This document shows, one piece after another, positions 39,901-61,765 of a DNA stretch of 64,000 bases. The stretch is from Eledone cirrhosa (Eukaryota). Below the pieces are notes generated by a model that saw only the letters and a list, made by a program, of their open reading frames with translations, was not told where the DNA came from and made no database searches. The first letter of the stretch is position 1; every line of letters begins with the position of its first letter. Location: the NCBI GenBank assembly GCA_964016885.1, contig OZ024763.1:18228001-18292000 (forward strand), read 5' to 3'. Position numbers and translations under genes: made by a program.

Positions 39901-41166
39901 CCTTGCAAGCAGGGAAAAGTGGACGTATGATGATGATAATGATATATAAACGGAAAAAATGAAACAAAATTTCATTTCTCACTCTTAGTACGGCTGTTAC
40001 TTAAATTTAAGTATGTATACGTACATACATATATGTATACAGACGTACAGTAGTATGCATATATATATACATACATGCACACATATATATATGTACGTAT
40101 GGATTCACCGAACATTTATTATATTGCTCGGTGTGTTTGTAAACAAACATCCCGAATTAAGCCGTACAGTGTCTAGCAACCATCGTTGCTCATTTGTTCA
40201 ACACTGACAAAGGAACGCTGTACTAGTTTCAAGCTTATTAGCTATCGTCAGCAATGTATACCTTCCTGCCAGATGATTGAACGTCTGAAAGTATATACTT
40301 TCCTTATGCATATTAATGGCTGAGCAGCCTAATTTGCATATCGAGTGAGTTAATCGGCCGGGCGCACAGAAAACGATAAACGGAAAAAATGAAACGAAAT
40401 TTCATTTCGCACTCTTAGTACAGCTGTTACTTAAATATAAGTATGTATACATACATATATGCATACAGACGTACAGTAGTATGTATATATATATACATAC
40501 ATGCACACATATATATATGTACGTATGGATTCACCGAACATTTATTATAAGGCTCGGTCTGTTTGTAAACAAACATCCCAAATTAAGCCGTACAGTGTCT
40601 AGCAACAATCGTTGCTCATTTGTTCAACACTGACAAAGGAACGCTGTACTAGTTTCAAGCTTATTAGCTATCGTCAGCAACGTATACCTTCCTGCCAGAT
40701 GATTGAACGTCTGAAAGTATATACTTTCCTTATGCATATTAACGGCTGAGCAGCCTAATTTGCATATCGTATACATACTTATATTTAAGTAACAGCCGTA
40801 CTAAGAGTGAGAAATGAAATTTTGTTTCACTTTTTCCGTTTATCGTTTTCGGTGCGCCCGGCCGATTAACTCACTCGATATGCAAATTAGGCTGCTCAGC
40901 CGTTAATATGCATAAGGAAAGTATATACTTTCAGACGTTCAATCATCTGGCAGGAAGGTATACTTTGCGGACGATAGCTAATATGCTTGAAACTAGTACA
41001 GCGTTCCTTTGTCAGTGTTGAACAAATGAGCAACGATGGTTGCTAGACACTGTACGGCTTAATTCGGGATGTTTGTTTACAAACACACAGAGCATTATAA
41101 TAAATGTTCGTACATATATATATGTGTGCATGTATGTATATATATATATACATACTACTATACATA

Positions 41167-41197
<31 letters not shown>

Positions 41198-44100
41198 CAA
41201 AATAAATCCGTTGAGTTAAAAACTCACAATACTCCCTTATAATCAAATTAGCTCATGGAAAAAATCCAAACCCTTTATAACACAGATATATATCATCATC
41301 ATCATCATCATCATATAACGTCCATCTTCCACGCTAGCATGGGGTAGACGGTTTTCTTCCATATGATGCGGGAGTGGTCGGGAGACCGTGTCTTGCTCTT
41401 ACGAAAGTGTCTCTGGCAGGTTTTCTACGGCCAGATGCCCTCCCTAACACCAACCACCTTTACAGTTCAAAACATAATGTCGGTTTATATAGAGAAAAGG
41501 ACCACATTAGATTGGTGTTACTGCAGTGATAATTACAACTTTAAAAAATACTCACACACACACACATATATATTTATATTTATCCTTAATTTATCCTTTT
41601 AATTAAGTTCTGTGAACTGTACTATCTTTAGTGAATAGATTCTTCACCTTTGCGGTTTTGTATCCCTTATGATTTGAACACACATATATATATATGCGTG
41701 TTGTTCTCTCTTTACTGCGTTACATATATATATATACATATCACCGTCATCATCATCATCGTTTAACGTCTATCTTCCACGCTAGCATGGGTTTAGATGA
41801 GAGTTGTCCCACTTGAGGCAAGATTGGTCGGGTGACCGTGTCTCACTCGTATAGGACTGTCTAGCAGGTTTTCTATGGCTGGATGCCCTTCCTAACACCA
41901 ACAACATTTACAGTGTGGACTGAGAACTTTTTACCATGTTACCTACACAGCCACATTACAGCGTGGACTGTGTGTTATTTTGTTGTGACACCTACACGAT
42001 TTCGATCTCGATCGCATTAGTTTGGACTGGATGGTGTGGTATATATATATATATATATATGCAAAAGGAAATCAGAAATAACAAAACAAACAACACAGTA
42101 CAATGCAGAAATATATTAATTTTACACTTGATATAGTAGGAAAAAAGTCTTAACGTTTCAGACTCTAGTCCTTCATAAAAAAATATAATGAGAGAAGACA
42201 AGAGGGGAGAGACAGCTGAACAGAGATAGACAGAGAAAATAAATACAGACAGACAACTAGACATATAGCTAGATAGATATTTCTTACCTTACTTTGCCGA
42301 GAAATAAAAACTTTGATGCTAAACAGAAGAAGAGACCAGATATAGCAATGGGAGAAATATTCCTGTTAAGGATCTGCCAGACTTTTACAAGCCTCACAGG
42401 CGGTGCCATTGTAGCTATATAATCAGAATTGATCTGACAGACGTGTAAAATAAGGAGAGTCACAGCGGAGAGAAAACTGAATATCTCTAGAACTGGAGGA
42501 AGACGATATTGAAAACCTGTCAACATCGACATCTGAAAAGAAATACACAGCAGAAATAGTACAGATGTTTTCACTATAATATATTGCATATTACGACAGT
42601 CTTTAACCCTTTAGCATTTACACTACTCTATATATACTATTGTATTTTCACAGTAAAGGCTTTACCTCACATAATATTTACATTACTCTATATTTACTAT
42701 TGTATTTTCACAGTAAAGGCTTTACCTCACATAATATCTCACATAACATTTACCTTAATCTATATTTACTATTGTATTTTCACAGTAAAGGCTTTACCTC
42801 ACATAATATCTCACATAACATTTACATTACTCTATATTTACTATTGTATTTTCACAGTAAAGGCTTTACCTCACATAATATCTCACATAACATTTACATT
42901 ACTCTATATTTACTATTGTATTTTCACAGTAAAGGCTTTACCTCACATAACATTTACATTACTCTATATATACTATTGTATTTTCACAGTAAAGGCTTTA
43001 CGTCACATAATATCTCACATAACATTTACATTACTCTATATATACTATTGTATTTTCACAGTAAAGGCTTTACCTCACATAATTATCTCACATAACATTT
43101 ACATTACTCTATATTTACTATTGTATTTTCACAGTAAAGGCTTTACCTCACATAATATCTCACATAACATTTACATTACTCTATATATACTATTGTATTT
43201 TCACAGTAAAGGCTTTACCTCACATAATTATCTCACATAACATTTACATTACTCTATATTTACTATTGTATTTTCACAGTAAAGGCTTTACTTCACATAA
43301 TATCTCACATAACCTTTACATTACTCTATATATACTATTGTATTTTCATGGTAAAGGTTTTACCTCACATAATATCTCACATAACATTTACATTACTCTA
43401 TATATACTATTGTATTTTCATGGTAAAGGTTTTACCTCACATAACATTTACATTACTCTATATATACTATTGTATTTTCACAGTAAAGGCTTTACCTCAC
43501 ATAATATCTCACATAACATTTACATTACTCTATATTTACTATTGTATTTTCACAGTAAAGGCTTTACCTCACATAACATTTACATTACTCTATATATACT
43601 ATTGTATTTTCACAGTAAAGGCTTTACGTCACATAATATCTCACATAACATTTACATTACTCTATATATACTATTGTATTTTCACAGTAAAGGCTTTACC
43701 TCACATAATTATCTCACATAACATTTACATTACTCTATATATACTATTGTATTTTCACAGTAAAGGCTTTACCTCACATAATTATCTCACATAACATTTA
43801 CATTACTCTATATTTACTATTGTATTTTCACAGTAAAGGCTTTACTTCACATAATATCTCACATAACCTTTACATTACTCTATATATACTATTGTATTTT
43901 CATGGTAAAGGTTTTACCTCACATAATATCTCACATAACATTTACATTACTCTATATATACTATTGTATTTTCATGGTAAAGGTTTTACCTCACATAATA
44001 TCTCACATAACATTTACATTACTCTATATATACTATTGTATTTTCACAGTAAAGGCTTTACCTCACATAATATCTCACATAACATTTACATTACTCTATA

Positions 44101-47100
44101 TTTACTATTGTATTTTCACAGTAAAGGCTTTACCTCACATAACATTTACATTACTCTATATATACTATTGTATTTTCACAGTAAAGGCTTTACGTCACAT
44201 AATATCTCACATAACATTTACATTACTCTATATATACTATTGTATTTTCACAGTAAAGGCTTTACCTCACATAATTATCTCACATAACATTTACATTACT
44301 CTATATTTACTATTGTATTTTCACAGTAAAGGCTTTACCTCACATAATATCTCACATAACATTTACATTACTCTATATATACTATTGTATTTTCACAGTA
44401 AAGGCTTTACTTCACATAATTATCTCACATAACATTTACATTACTCTATATTTACTATTGTATTTTCACAGTAAAGGCTTTACCTCACATAATATCTCAC
44501 ATAACCTTTACATTACTCTATATATACTATTGTATTTTCATGGTAAAGGTTTTACCTCACATAATATCTCACATAACATTTACATTACTCTATATATACT
44601 ATTGTATTTTCACAGTAAAGGCTTTACCTCACATAATTACCTATGAGATTTTGATATTCATTTTGAGAAAAATACTGTAACATCAGGATGAACGGCCAGT
44701 TACAGCCAGTTTGAACAGAAAGAGGTGAGAGAATTCTGGCCAGATATGGCTGGTTTGAATGCTAAAGGGTTAATGTAAAGAATGGTGTGCTCATGTGAAA
44801 AGATGATACAAAATAGGTTATAAGATAGGATGAAGACCCTTAAAAGACAAAAAGAAGTTGCCAACAGCTGCTATGAGGAATCAAACCCCATATCTCCCTG
44901 ATACCGGCATCTGGAAGGTATAGGGGTTCAATTCCTTATAGCAGCTGTTGGCAACTTCTTTTTCCATCTTGTAACTATTTAGCATCTAAACCAGCCATAT
45001 CCAGCCAGAATTCTCTCAATTCATGCTGTTCAAACTGGCCACACATACTGATGTTAAGGTATTGTTCTTAAAATAAATAATTGTTTCTCCTTTTGGCACA
45101 AGGCCAGCAATAACCCAGTGTATTACTGGTACTTTATTTTATCGACCCCGTAAGGATGAAAGGCAAAGTTAACCTCGGCGGGATTTGAACTCAGATCATA
45201 AAGGGACGTAACTCTATGCTTCAAAGCATGGCGTCCGACTCTCTACCGATTCTGCCAATCCACTAAAATAAATAATAACATCATCAAAATCTCATTGATT
45301 CAATATTATGTGAGGTAAAGCCTTTACTGTGAAAATACAACAGTATATATAGAGTAATGTAAATGTTATGTGAGATATTATGTGAGGTAAAGCCTTTACT
45401 GTGAAAATACAATAGTATATATAGAGTAATGTAAATGTTATGTGAGATATTATGTGAGGTAAAGCCTTTACTGTGAAAATACAATAGTAAATATAGAGTA
45501 ATGTAAATGTTATGTGAGATATTATGTGAGGTAAAGCCTTTACTGTGAAAATACAATAGTAAATATAGAGTAATGTAAATGTTATGTGAGATATTATGTG
45601 AGGTAAAGCCTTTACTGTGAAAATACAATAGTATATATAGAGTAATGTAAATGTTATGTGAGATATTATGTGAGGTAAAGCCTTTACCATGAAAATACAA
45701 TAGTATATATAGAGTAATGTAAATGTTATGTGAGATATTATGTGAGGTAAAGCCTTTACTGTGGAAATATAATAGTAAATATAGAGTAATGTAAATGTTA
45801 TGTGAGATATTATGTGAGGTAAAGCCTTTACTGTGAAAATGCAACAGTATATATAGAGTAATGTAAATGTTATGTGAGATATTATGTGAGGTAAAGCCTT
45901 TACTGTGAAAATACAATAGTATATATAGAGTAATGTAAATGTTATGTGAGATATTATGTGAGGTAAAGCCTTTACTGTGAAAATACAATAGTAAATATAG
46001 AGTAATGTAAATGTTATGCGAGATATTATGTGAGGTAAAGCCTTTACTGTGAAAATACAATAGTATATATAGAGTAATGTAAATGTTATGTGAGATATTA
46101 TGTGAGATTAAGCCTTTACTGTGAAAATGCAACAGTATATATAGAGTAATGTAAATGTTATGCGAGATATTATGTGAGGTAAAGCCTTTACTGTGAAAAT
46201 ACAATAGTATATATAGAGTAATGTAAATGTTATGTGAGATATTATGTGAGATTAAGCCTTTACTGTGAAAATGCAACAGTATATATAGAGTAATGTAAAG
46301 GATTAAGGGTTTTACTGGAAAAATACAATAATATATAGAGTAATGTGAAGGGTTAAGGGTTTTACTATGAAAATACAATAGTATATATAGAAAAGATCCC
46401 ATAACTCCTTGTGGAGTCATAGTAGCACTGTCATACGGTGTGTCTAGGGTACTTTTAAACCTGGTGGAGCCAAAACCTCTCCAGGTCTGAACACAGCCAA
46501 TTTTTTCTATAGAGGAATAATCGACCCCAGTACTGGACTGGTACTTTTTTTTTATCAACCTCGAAAGGGTGAAAGGCAAAGTTGACCGTGGCGAGATATG
46601 AACTCGGGCCGCACAATGAGGTGGGACGAATACCGTAAAGCATTCTATCTGACGTCTTAACGACGCTGCCATTCCACTGCCTATTAAATATAGAGTAATG
46701 TAAATGGTTTTATTGAGAAAATACAACAGTATATAGAGAGTAATGTTAACGGTTAGAAGTCTTACACTGAACATACAATAGTATATATAAAGTAATGTTA
46801 AGGATTTTACTGCGAAAATACAACAGTATATATTGAGTAATGTAAAGGATTAAGGGTTTTACTGCGAAAATACAATATATATTGAGTAATGTAAAGGATT
46901 AAAGGTTTTACTGCGAAAATACAACAGTATATATTGAGTAATGTAAAGGATTAAGGGTTTTACTGCGAAAATACAACAGTATATATTGAGTAATGTAAAG
47001 GATTAAGAGTTTTACTGCGAAAATACAACAGTATATATTGAGTAATGTAAAGGATTAAGGGTTTTACTGCGAAAATACAACAATATATATTGAGTAATGT

Positions 47101-48919
47101 AAAGGATTAAGGGTTTTACTGCGAAAATACAACAGTATATATAGAGTAATGTAAAGGATTAAGGGTTTTACTGCGAAAATACAACAGTATATATTGAGTA
47201 ATGTAAAGGATTAAGGGTTTTACTGCGAAAATACAACAGTATATATTGAGTAATGTAAAGGATTAAGGGTTTTACTGCGAAAATACAACAGTATATATAG
47301 AGTAATGTAAAGGATTAAGGGTCTTCACCCTATTTTATAAGCTATATTCTAGCATCTCAGTGCGAATGAGGCCATCATTCTTTAGGTTATAAACAAAGTG
47401 TGAGATTACCTGAGAAGTAGAGTTAGAAAATGTAGAAGCAGTGGAAGAGGCAGGAGACAAATGGCCGCTGCTGACAGTTTGAGGGTATTTCATTCTCAAA
47501 AACACATCAAGACGTTCCAACTCCTGCTGAACGTAGAGTTTACACTTGTAACAGAGGTTGTAGATCTTCTCCAGGTGTTCTTTATAGTCGTTCACTTCAT
47601 TGTTGTAGTTGGACTAAAGAAAAACAGCAGTGGAAACAGAATATAATAATAATTGTTTCTACTTTTAGGCACAAGGCCAGCAATTACCCCAGTGCATTAC
47701 TGGTACTTTATTTTATCGACCCCGTAAGGATGAAAGGCAAAGTCAACCTCGGCGGGATTTGAACTCAGATCGTAAAGGGACGTAACTATGCTGGAAAGCA
47801 TGGCGTCCAACCCTCTGCCGATACTGCCAATCCACCGATAATAATAATTGTTTCTACTTTTGGCACAAGGCCAGTAATTTCCCAGTACATTACTGGTACT
47901 TTATTTTATCAACCCCGTAAGGATGAAAGGCAAAGTTAAGCTCGGCGGGATTTGAACTCGGATCCACCGATAATAATAATGATTTCTAGTATAGGCCCAA
48001 GGCCAGTAATTTTGGTGAGGAGAAAGTCGGTTAAATCAACCCCAGTGCATTACTGGTACTTTATTTTATCGACTCTGTAAGGATGAAAGGCAAAGTTAAC
48101 CTCGGTGGGATTTGAACTCAGGACGCAAAGGGCCGCAACTCTATGCTGCAAAGCATGGTGTCCGACCCTCTACCGATACTGCCAATCCTCCAAAGCAGGA
48201 AAATACAAGACTTACCTCAACAAACGGCCTAAAGACGGCCAACTGTTGTACTTTAAGAAGCTGCCTCTCATTACAGGCGGAACAGAGACCGTTTGATAAG
48301 GGAACCATCTTTTGTTTGGAACAGGAGATTGGGTAGTTAAGTTCTGTTGACCATTGGGCAGGTATTGGTTTGTTGTAATCTCCATCCTACAAACACACAA
48401 TAATAATAATAAAGGTTTATGATTTAGGCACAAGACCAACAATTTGGGGGGAGGGGAACATCGATTAAATTGACCCCATCTTACCAACACGGAAAAGTTG
48501 ATGTAAAAATGATGATATATATATATGCCATGTACATCCAGTTTACAATATGTATACAGTATCACTGACTGTCATAAGTGACTAAAAGGGTTATTGCCAG
48601 GAAAGGCATTTTAATGTAAAACATTGCCTCAAAAAGTCTCATCTAACCCATGTCAGCATGGAAAAGTAAACATAAAAACAATATTATGTACATGTGTCTC
48701 AGTTGCCAATATAAGCTTGTTTTTATTGACTTATATCGAGACAGACAAATTGTATTCACTTTAATTAGTTTATTTCATTAATAGCTGACTGTCTGTTGCA
48801 ATGCAAACAGGTTTTGTGTTTATCATATATTTTAATGTATTTAACTGCTCGGAAATGCCCCTTTCCTGGAGCTTAATTATTGTAAAGGACTGAGAGCTTA
48901 TTCTCAAAATATTATATAG

Positions 48920-55235: not shown

Positions 55236-55728
55236 ATATATATGTGTGTGTATGTGTATGTGTGTGTGTCCTTGCAGACGTAAAATGATGATGATATATA
55301 TTAGTATTACATTACAGCTTCGGATAATATGGTAGAGAGACAATATTCAAGAAATTAATGTGTTTGGATTGTCAAAGAATTGTAGGAATTTGGTTGCATT
55401 GTTTCCTGTAACACCATAAATGGAAGAATGTTATTAATAGCAGATCACCATGTAGACTAACAATAGAGAACAAATATTGTGAATAAGGCTCAAACAATGG
55501 GATATATATATATATTTTTTTTTTTTGGATCAATCGACTTTCGTCAAAACGGACCTAGGAAACAATGTTTCCATTGGTCTTTCCAATTACTATTACTATC
55601 TATCGGTCGCAACTCCAGGTAGAAGGAGCAACGAGAAATAAATTGTCTTGCTCAAGGACATAACGCATTGCCCAGTCCAGGAATCGAACTCACAACCTCA
55701 AGATTGTGAATCCAATTCTCTAACCACT

Positions 55729-56531
55729 CATTTTGTTCAACACTGACAAAGGAACGATGAACTAGTTTCAAGCTTATTAGCTATCGTCAGCATCGTATAA
55801 CTTCCTGTCAAATGATTGAACGTTTGAAAGTATATACTTTCCTTATGCATATTAACGGCTGAGTAGCCTAATTTGCATATCGAGTGAGTTAGGCGGCCGG
55901 GCATACCGAAAACGATAAATGGAAAAAATTAAATTTCATTTCTCACTCTTAATACGGCTAATACTCAAATATAAGTATGTATACGTACATGCATATATGT
56001 ATACAGACGTACAGTATTATGTATATATATACATACATGCACACATATATATATGTACGTATGGGTTTACCGAACATTTATTATAATGCTCGGTTTGTTT
56101 GTAAACAAACAGCCCGAATTATTAGCCGTACAGTGTTCAGCATGCAAATCACTCAATATGCAAATTAGGCTGCTCAGCCGTTAATATGCATAAGGAAAGT
56201 ATATACTTTCAAACATTCAATCAACTGACAGGAAGGTATACGGTGCTGATGACAGCTAATAAGCTAGAAACAGTTCATCGTTCCTTTGTCAGTGTTGAAC
56301 AAAATGGCAACGATGGTTGCTGAACACTGTACGGCTATAATTCAGGCTGTTTGTTTACAAACAAACCGAGCATTATAATAACTGTTTGGTAAACCCATAC
56401 GTACATATATATATATGTGTGTGCATGTATGTATGTATATACATACTACTGTACGTCTGTATACATACTTACATTTGAGTGAGTATCAGCCGTAGTAAGA
56501 GTGAGAAATAAAATTTCATTTTTTCCATTTA
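55729..56531. mobile_element. Diverged second locus of the 426-bp hammerhead element (direct plus inverted copy)
   Basis: Clear homology to 39947-41165; HHRs at 55754-55796(-) and 56240-56281(+). Confidence 0.83.
55754..55796 (-). ncRNA. Minimal type I hammerhead
   Basis: ACGATG-CTGACGA-t-AGCTaataAGCT-t-GAAA-CTAG-TT-CATCGT, with a fully Watson-Crick 6-bp stem I. Confidence 0.82.
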
Positions 56532-57195
56532 TATATATATATATATATAATGAAACAATTGTTAATACTGTAAATAAAACCCTTTTTGTACAGCCGACCA
56601 TGTTGTTCTTCACTCTGTCACTATATATATATATATAAACCCCAGATTGGAAAAAGGGTGAGCACTGATGTACATGGGACACAAACCCACATCTTTGGCT
56701 ATCATGAACACTGTTTTTATAACTCCAACTATTAATTTACTCAAAAATACGGTGGAAGCTCTATTTCACTATCTAATTTTCAAATTATTCACTGTTTGTA
56801 AAAAAAACTAATTTTCAAACCAACACTAAGCTCTGTATCTTATATATCATCATCTTCGTTTAATGTCCATCTTCCACGCTAGCATGAGTTAGACGGGAGT
56901 TGTCCCACTTGAGGCAAGGTTGGTCGGGCGACCGTATCTCGTTCATATAGGACTGCCTGGCAGCTTTTCTATGGCTGGATGCCCTTCCTAACACCAACCA
57001 CGTTTACAGTGTGGAACTGGCAACTTTTTACCGTGTTACCTACACGGCCACATTACAGCGTGGACTGTGTGTTTTTTGTCATGATACCTACACGATCTCG
57101 ATCTCATTTATCTCATTTATTTGGACTGGATGTTGTGGTACCAACTTTACAGAGAGGGGGTGGCATTCATCTACACCTAGTTTTCTAAGAGCCCA

Positions 57196-60629: not shown

Positions 60630-60784
60630 TAATATATAATTAAATTATTGGGTACAGTGCTCAGGTGTACTACAAAAGAAATGCTTACAGCACCTAGGTT
60701 TCCAAGCAGTCGCCCATCTAAGTGCTAACTAGACTCGACGTTGCTTCACTTCGGTGATCGGACGAGAACCGGTGTTTCCAGCGT
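60630..60784 (-). pseudogene. 5'-truncated 5S rRNA-derived copy (60679-60784) fused to a retroposon 3' tail
   Basis: ACACCGGTTCTCGTCCGATCACCGAAGTGAAGC...GGTGCTGTAAGCATTT, then TTGTAGTACACCTGAGCACTGTACCCAATAATT, a tail also seen at 30198-30280(+) and 34330-34411(-). Confidence 0.85.
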
Positions 60785-61765
60785 ACGAAAGAAAAAATCG
60801 CAAAACATTTTTGTTAGAAATCAAATTAGTCACTAGAGGTCACTACATGTATTTTATTAGCCGTTATCCTATAACAGATTGCTTTTTCTGCAAGAAGTAG
60901 CAGCCATATTGCATGAAGAAATCGTAGTTGCTAGTTATCTTCCTTGAGTATTTATTTTTTTGTGATGACATTTTTAACCACTAGACGTCATGACATGTAT
61001 TTTACTGTCCGTTGTCCTATAACAGATCGATGTCGTTGTTAGAAATAACAACCAAATTCACTTCACATTACATTCTACTATCGTGAAAAAACAAAGACAC
61101 ATTGGATGATGTATTTCTGAAACAGGTCAATAGTTGAGGTTGAACACAGATGTTCGACCCGTAGGCTATCTTTATATATAAATATTTTCCTGACAATATA
61201 TATATGTATATATGAAATATAAATAAATGTTATCAGCGAGAGGTGACATTTCGCAGAAAATGATTACTTGTGGATAGATCAATAGTAGTTATTGCTTTGG
61301 ACATTTCTATCGGCTTTCCATCAATACTTTTCTTGTCGTTTAAAGAACATGCGTTCCACAGACGGGAGAACCACATAATAGAATTGTTTAAATAAAACTG
61401 AGAATAATATACAAACCCCCACCACCCCCATCGTTACCCCCTGTGGCACATGTCTGGACAATGTGGATCAATGAGAAGGCTCTCCGAAGTACAGAACCCC
61501 AGATGCAAGCCTTCTCGTGGTCCCGGCAGATAGAATAGAGAATGTATTATTCCAGAAGATAGTAAGGGGGACGTGTTGAAATAGCCAAACCAACCTCCGA
61601 GTTTCATTTCTGCGGGTGGCCAACTCCCGATATAAACTTTATCCAAAAACAAGGTGGCTTAGGTAACAGTGAAATAGGTGTTGTTAATAGTATGTTTTCT
61701 CGATCAGAGTTAATCTGGGACTAAACAACGAGGAGCCATCTACCTGGTCACCCAAACCCAAATAA

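Follow-up and report, generated by a model that had tools for sequence, protein, structure and literature searches.

Locus B, as the segment at 55729-56532 of the window (the whole stretch of 64,000 nucleotides that was analysed) is called here, most probably represents head-to-head, partial and decaying copies of a 426-bp repeat carrying a hammerhead ribozyme. The repeat is likely a non-LTR retrozyme, a passenger of Penelope-like elements (PLEs), and its source lineages were likely selected for their RNA fold. Five copies of the family are present in the window, A1 (40215), A2 (40641) and A3 (40962) at locus A and B1 (55754) and B2 (56240) at locus B (Table 1). An initial annotation of locus B had argued from three stems I that the ribozyme was under selection. 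For the source lineages, selection for the ribozyme and for RNA structure is probably right, since in contigs of four organisms the core is spared and most of the predicted pairs are retained, but the stem I evidence offered does not show selection.

Table 1 Features of the two loci of the 426-bp family and of other parts of the window
Feature	Position	Strand	Description
Reverse transcriptase (RT) fragment	3907-5245	+	5'-truncated, frameshifted; long (TA)n tracts on both sides; RVT_1, E 1.2e-20
Related 60-72-bp tandem arrays	19974-22418 and 42666-47322		partly inverted
Locus A main tract	39946..40769	-	824 nt, 1.93 tandem units; hammerheads A1 and A2; same fixed 3' end as B2
Hairpin P, reference copy	40190-40175	-	arms AGCAAC/GUUGCU; pair probabilities 0.92-1.00
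A1 hammerhead	40215-40257	-	A.C mismatch at pair 2.4-1.4
Invariant 30-nt block with octamer ATGCAAAT	40312-40341	-	octamer counterparts at 55871-55878 and 56158-56165
A2 hammerhead	40641-40683	-	stem I ACGTTG/CAGCGT; pair 2.3-1.3 U.G
Locus A inverted partner A3	40770..41165	+	runs out into (TA)n; right end approximate
A3 hammerhead, broken	40962-41004	+	U.C mismatch at 2.4-1.4; core U4->G; broken stem II pair
Dispersed SINE-like repeat	55625..55728	-	first ~16 nt missing; adjoins 3' end of B1
Copy B1	55729..56142	-	414 nt, ~1 circularly permuted unit; end 31 nt past predicted cleavage site
Predicted extended helix I around B1 hammerhead	55736..55820	-	distal helices beyond a UAU bulge; bounds carried over from locus A via the offset; private G>U breaks one distal pair
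Type I hammerhead motif of B1	55754..55796	-	C3 55790; H17=U 55760; pair 2.3-1.3 A-U; U.U at 10.1/11.1; ACUAGU palindrome intact
Octamer ATGCAAAT, B1 counterpart	55871-55878	-	second conserved block
Head-to-head junction of two 5' ends	56143..56149		short extra ATGCAAA-like stretch
Copy B2	56146..56532	+	~387 nt; finishes at fixed 3' end of the family (..CCRTTTAT)
Octamer ATGCAAAT in B2	56158..56165	+	second conserved block
Type I hammerhead motif of B2	56240..56281	+	C3 56246; N7=U; H17=U 56275; pair 2.3-1.3 G.U; C.A at 10.1/11.1; one loop-3 base missing, ACUAGU palindrome lost
Hairpin P in B2	56306..56321	+	6-bp stem; GAUG loop closed by C-G; ~30 nt past cleavage site
(TA)n flank	56533..56549		directly after fixed 3' end of B2; inferred insertion target
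5S rRNA match	60682-60799	-	60.8 bits; many broken pairs

At both loci two 5' ends are joined head to head. Locus B is a pair of roughly unit-length, differently permuted copies without a tandem part, and the only tandem direct repeat of the family within the window is found at 39946-40769, where the monomer between the two cut sites measures 426 nt. From the direct-plus-inverted layout formerly ascribed to locus B the head-to-head inverted pair therefore remains, but not the direct tandem. Locus A fits the class of low-GC, non-coding tandem units of 150-450 bp with a type I hammerhead each, whereas locus B is not tandem; two consecutive units with intact hammerheads are present at neither locus, the stem I pair of A1 being broken. 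B1 and B2 differ in 19 of 276 columns (6.9%), the copies of locus A among themselves in 2.3-2.8%, and B2 has G2.3, U7 and one upstream transversion in common with the main type of organism B (see below). Either locus B is old, or two different templates gave rise to it. The neighbouring repeat at 55625-55728, which we take to be SINE-like, has 12 other matches within the window, nine of them beginning at the junction base. The window's share of SINE-like repeats and microsatellites would suit the genome of a cephalopod.

On the ribozyme strand the motif consists of the 5' arm of helix I, CUGANGA, helix II (AGCU/AGCU with the loop AAUA), GAAAC-UA-GU-H and the 3' arm of helix I. This is canonical type I geometry with a 6-bp helix I, a UAU bulge, a 4-bp helix II and a short palindromic helix III, the palindrome being absent in B2. 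The core CUGANGA / GAAA / UH with open helix I is found in four of the five copies, A3 (U4>G) being the exception. The conserved G10.1-C11.1 pair is absent from all five, with U.U in four and C.A in B2. A type I descriptor gave eight matches in the window, three of them in the 426-bp family and five in a second family, and none in each of 30 block-wise dinucleotide shuffles of the window; the motif is thus not a product of chance. Two of the five copies fail the full descriptor and a third, B2, is without the palindrome. U at H17 is slower than A or C. Pairing of two copies through the ACUAGU palindrome is predicted at -6.8 kcal/mol for A2, -8.0 for B1 and -3.4 for B2. Cleavage at locus B is predicted to be weak or dead, because each strand carries one sense hammerhead, H17 is U and B2 has no palindrome.

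HH9 is a single-copy conserved motif of amniotes. The corresponding Rfam family (Hammerhead_HH9, RF02275) matches weakly but in register, with E 0.0066 and 0.018 and 18-20 bits, far short of its gathering score of 52; within this below-threshold match the type I topology, the UAU bulge and the AAUA loop 2 align, whereas the 426-bp family is a decaying repeat. No Rfam Hammerhead family (CL00010) reached its gathering score, the best match having 19.7 bits against 52, and a 1-kb scan by E-value returned no hammerhead among the 52 matches listed. At gathering level the whole window yielded only the 5S rRNA match, probably a pseudogene. Matches of miRNA families to the AT-rich arm were discarded on account of its low complexity.

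A second, unrelated hammerhead family was observed at 940-3457. Its 559-bp unit forms about 3.6 tandem copies on the plus strand after a head-to-head inverted copy, with (TA)n on both sides, and the layout is that of the 426-bp family. The copies are 98.6-100% identical and very young. In the motif stem II is long and branched and has C.A at the base, the stem III loop is palindromic and H17 is U; it is intact five times (C3 at 1626, 2185, 2742 and 3301 on the plus and at 1219 on the minus strand). Two consecutive intact units are present here, and this family would be a better candidate for cleavage than locus B.

The stem I arms on which the initial annotation relied, ACGTTG/CAGCGT (minus strand, 40683-40641), ACGATG/CATCGT (minus, 55796-55754) and ACGGTG/CATCGT (plus, 56240-56281), are real and lie at the places given for them. 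Likewise, pair 2.3-1.3 is U.G in A2, A-U in B1 and G.U in B2, and both N7 (C, C and U) and H17 (A, U and U) vary as had been claimed. The rest of the core, however, is not constant, as B2 has C.A for U.U at 10.1/11.1 and misses one loop-3 base. Furthermore, the set of three copies was incomplete: A1 and A3 had been left out, both of which break pair 2.4-1.4, directly beside the swapped one. The statement that both sides changed while pairing was kept holds for U.G compared with either A-U or G.U, but A-U and G.U are separated by a single one-sided transition. With all five copies the covariation is not significant, its score being reached by 57 of 500 shuffles. One of the 21 pairs changed on both sides, a count that 345 of 500 shuffles reached as well. 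The swap is one two-sided event with a chance P between about 0.03 (12 core pairs) and 0.05 (21 pairs), given the six differences by which A2 and B1 are separated over 76 nt.

Changes private to one copy affect 7 of 46 ribozyme columns and 5 of 105 columns outside (two-sided P 0.055); hence the inserted copies are not spared in the core. Two of the seven, the 10.1 and 11.1 changes of B2, could be minor lineage alleles. A core that mutates like its flanks had been named as evidence against selection, and this is what the inserted genomic copies show, but it is untrue of the high-share variants from four organisms. The private changes also bear on the idea that the genomic copies themselves are functional host ribozymes under selection, like the amniote HH9. 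Although HH9 is the best Rfam ribozyme match, changes at least as frequent inside the ribozyme as outside, together with the two copies failing the descriptor and the third without palindrome, have already largely refuted this explanation, and it has to be regarded as extremely improbable.

Lineage variants were taken from four sequencing runs (X1, X4, X6 and X7) mapped to 40130-40450 at 80% likeness; 23 runs were listed, 20 of them with part of the stretch and none recorded as RNA, which has no bearing on expression. Organisms A to D contribute 9,765, 3,272, 18 and 43 contigs; they are related and stem from three studies, and X1 may be the window's own source. Used were 40 of 159 variant rows, all with a share of at least 0.42 in at least one run; small shares were left aside and rarer core variants are possible. 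Three rows that only the reference copy shows were removed, which left 37 changes, distributed over 36 sites. Inside the 46-nt motif only 1.3, 2.3 and N7 belong to these 36 sites, and none falls into the 29-nt inner core (C3 to U16.1, N7 excluded). The sparing of the inner core has a P of 0.007-0.026 depending on the range assumed, and of 0.009 if base and CpG status are kept. It is not significant for the whole motif (P 0.07-0.21) or for the 11 catalytic nucleotides alone (P 0.17-0.26), which comprise too few sites. A second block of 30 nt, containing the octamer, is as invariant as the ribozyme core; a gap of at least 28 sites without variants arises by chance in 36% of simulations if the block is not named beforehand.

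The shares of U1.3 and G2.3 amount to 0.85 and 0.82 in X4, 0.79 and 0.40 in X7, 0.56 and 0.13 in X1 and 0.15 and 0 in X6. G.U at pair 2.3-1.3 is consequently a real state at the level of lineages, as U1.3 reaches 85% and G2.3 82% in organism B. A-U at this pair was directly observed in a single copy, that at 55754, the change not being one of the 40 rows used out of 159. What is left over in X1 and X7, about 0.4, is either A-U with a share slightly below 0.42 or U.U.

On the free circular fold, 20 of the 37 variants are unpaired, six keep the pair, three keep it together with a change of the partner and eight break it. Random placement predicts 15.1 broken pairs (permutation P 0.003). Neutral change from a structured ancestor with the reference refolded predicts 13.75, and eight or fewer were obtained in 3 of 300 replicates. 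Two of the eight pair-breaking variants lie in distal helix I beside a bulge (40209 and 40210). Extended helix I ends at 40197 and 40281, and it is at or close to these ends, at 40193-40196 and 40272, that organism-B contigs depart from the reference. A-to-I editing as the origin of the variants was rejected by eye, since on the sense strand A>G (5 of 37) does not outnumber U>C (6 of 37). Pattern scans of metagenome, viral and genome contig collections revealed no further loci of the 426-bp family.

The predicted 426-nt circular monomer is highly self-paired, with a z of -4.1 that none of 100 shuffles reached and of -3.35 if the AT-rich arm is left out. In its free fold both hammerhead stems form, stem I with pair probabilities of 0.45-0.94 and stem II with 0.90-1.00. 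The best covariation in the element is found outside the ribozyme, in the hairpin P. In a majority line of 47 organism-B contigs its arms, set in register by four variants, read GAUGGC/GCCGUC, and in a second line of 66 contigs GGGGAC/GUCCCC; both lines are loose-end majority sequences read by eye with an agreement of only about 0.6. The arms of the first line are also present on one single contig. In this line all six pairs are kept while 9 of 12 stem letters are changed, by four two-sided changes and one wobble, with one pair unchanged. The loops GAUG, GUUG and GGUG conform to C(GNUG)G.

The invariant block with the octamer ATGCAAAT may be a promoter of the snRNA type or a protein-binding site. 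A partial extra copy of the block was noticed at the junction of locus B (56142). It is a tentative and rather doubtful suggestion that hairpin P, under stronger compensatory evolution than the hammerhead, and the octamer block form a second structural module and are signals for the RT of a PLE, serving recognition of a circular passenger RNA, priming at a fixed internal site and copying across the ligation junction.

Instead of selection on RNA, processes at the DNA level might have produced the apparent structural conservation, namely the correction of short inverted repeats by template switching, mutation rates that are uneven, or a small number of founder lineages. The swap in stem I is a single event, the antisense strand folds about as stably in two of five segments, and one-sided changes to G.U or A-U (six) are not many more than those to C.A (four among the eight broken pairs); moreover, the runs come from three studies and related organisms. 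On the other hand, unpaired catalytic nucleotides are spared while N7, a known free position, varies, and hairpin P keeps a sense-strand wobble and a GNUG loop in spite of the changes in its stem. Since the neutral simulation also rarely reaches the observed count (3 of 300), this possibility appears quite unlikely, and selection on RNA in the source lineages remains the preferred reading.

The insertion structure connects the family with PLEs. In both loci the 3' end of the main copy is the same base (39946 and 56532); it lies beside an AT-rich simple repeat, and the cut site is found 155 nt downstream of it. Moreover, 59 contigs of X1 and one of X7 leave the element into (TA)n at this fixed end. 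The cut site is traversed by the copies, twice in locus A and once in B2. Taking both loci together, the layout is Penelope-like, with a partial tandem, an adjacent inverted 5'-truncated copy and an AT-rich or (TA)n target; a target-site duplication was not definable in the (TA)n flanks. The two main copies (n=2) have their start (40769; 56146-56150) about 27-33 nt beyond the point where the preceding unit has its fixed 3' end. This offset has the size of the PLE tail (30-40 bp), no tail was seen, and the offset is absent from the 559-bp family.

An ORF with RT plus GIY-YIG domains is found neither in nor beside the two loci, and the tandem units of locus A have no ORF between them. The scan of 20 of the 92 ORFs of at least 100 aa (most simple-repeat ones were skipped) gave one RVT_1 match and no autonomous PLE in the window. 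The matching fragment is presumably LINE-type, CR1/L2-like by its motifs, and was rejected as mobilising partner on these motifs. Its presence in the same window would suit a 426-bp repeat that travels, like a SINE, as the passenger of an ordinary LINE; amplification as local satellite DNA is another option, satellite-type tandem growth having been discussed for retrozymes (bioRxiv 10.64898/2026.07.22.740005). However, the copies lack a poly(A) or LINE-like 3' tail, their 3' end falls inside a unit that is circularly permuted, head-to-head partners are present at both loci, and dispersed copies end at one site in many contigs. Both variants of this explanation are very unlikely.

More serious is the proposal that the 426-bp unit is the pseudo-LTR (pLTR) of an autonomous PLE, so that the loci in the window are 5'-truncated or inverted ends without a circular RNA stage of their own. 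PLEs and their pLTR hammerheads resemble the 426-bp family in partial tandems, adjacent inverted 5'-truncated copies, AT-rich or (TA)n targets and an internal start of reverse transcription (PMC4209133; PMC8557442; PMC11167929). In particular, tandem and inverted insertions and (TA)n targets are reported in PMC8557442 and reverse transcription initiated internally in PMC11167929. Descriptions of PLEs include all three of the head-to-head layout, the (TA)n flanks and a spacing of 100-700 bp between hammerheads of opposite strands. Furthermore, frog retrozymes are sister groups of pLTRs according to the cited preprint, and in one PLE the hammerhead is dispensable for insertion in vitro, where mutants still insert (PMC11167929). 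Against a pLTR stand the 1.93 pure tandem units of locus A with no ORF between them, the canonical and not minimal, PLE-type geometry of the motif and the predicted fold of the unit as a stable closed circle; the family also differs from PLEs in the missing RT/GIY-YIG ORF and G10.1-C11.1 pair. We consider the pLTR explanation unlikely.

A retrozyme carried by PLEs would spread as follows. Tandem arrays would be transcribed, and two neighbouring hammerheads, paired via the ACUAGU palindromes, would excise monomers of 426 nt for circularisation. A Penelope-like RT/endonuclease would nick (TA)n DNA and prime inside the unit at the fixed position, 155 nt upstream of the cut. The template must be a circle or an uncut multimer, because the copies cross the cut site, and a second priming from the other end of the target would give rise to the head-to-head partner. 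Selection would act only on copies that become templates and not on those that have landed. Such selection at the level of the template is in keeping with a core that lineage variants spare as well as with the private decay of inserted copies.

Non-LTR retrozymes were defined in PMC7229834, where units of about 350-390 bp are given for mussels. With them (PMC7229834; bioRxiv 10.64898/2026.07.22.740005) the 426-bp family has in common the low-GC tandem unit of a few hundred bp without an ORF, one type I hammerhead per unit and a self-paired predicted circle that leaves the ribozyme free. It differs in its unit of 426 nt and its unrelated sequence, and its circles are predicted ones. In addition, the fixed internal 3' end, the (TA)n flanks and the head-to-head partners structurally tie it to insertion of the PLE type. 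The very short palindromic helix III, which is expected to require dimers, is shared with HHR_Amex1 and HHR_Amex2 of the axolotl and with newt satellite 2 (PMC7229834). HHR_Amex2, which cleaves weakly, also has U.U at the base of helix II (PMC7229834), whereas H17 can be A or U in the 426-bp family, in distinction from these amphibian hammerheads. For newt satellite 2 a promoter of the snRNA type is reported (cited in PMC2220036), compared with a mere octamer motif as candidate in the 426-bp family. Only one of nine predicted frog retrozyme dimers was cleaved (cited preprint). Loop contacts between hammerhead stems I and II are described in PMC3088659, and 235 hammerhead-1 loci were counted in a squid genome (PMC6962438). 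A search by title and opening of the abstract, outside most subscription journals, returned no publication on the 426-bp family or on hairpin P.

Covariation within hammerhead families has already been described (PMC4209133; PMC8557442; PMC11167929). As tandem repeats with hammerheads, and covariation within them, are known across animals, selection on the ribozyme is to be expected and not surprising. The present analysis separates this selection on source lineages from the neutral decay of inserted copies. The fixed internal 3' end, the (TA)n flanks, the head-to-head arrangement and the crossing of the cut site are evidence for a spread of retrozymes by Penelope-like elements outside frogs, which is proposed but unproven. 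Hairpin P, which covaries outside the ribozyme, is a concrete target for mutagenesis, and if its reading as a signal is true, the 426-bp family would be a compact test system for the mobilisation of retrozymes.
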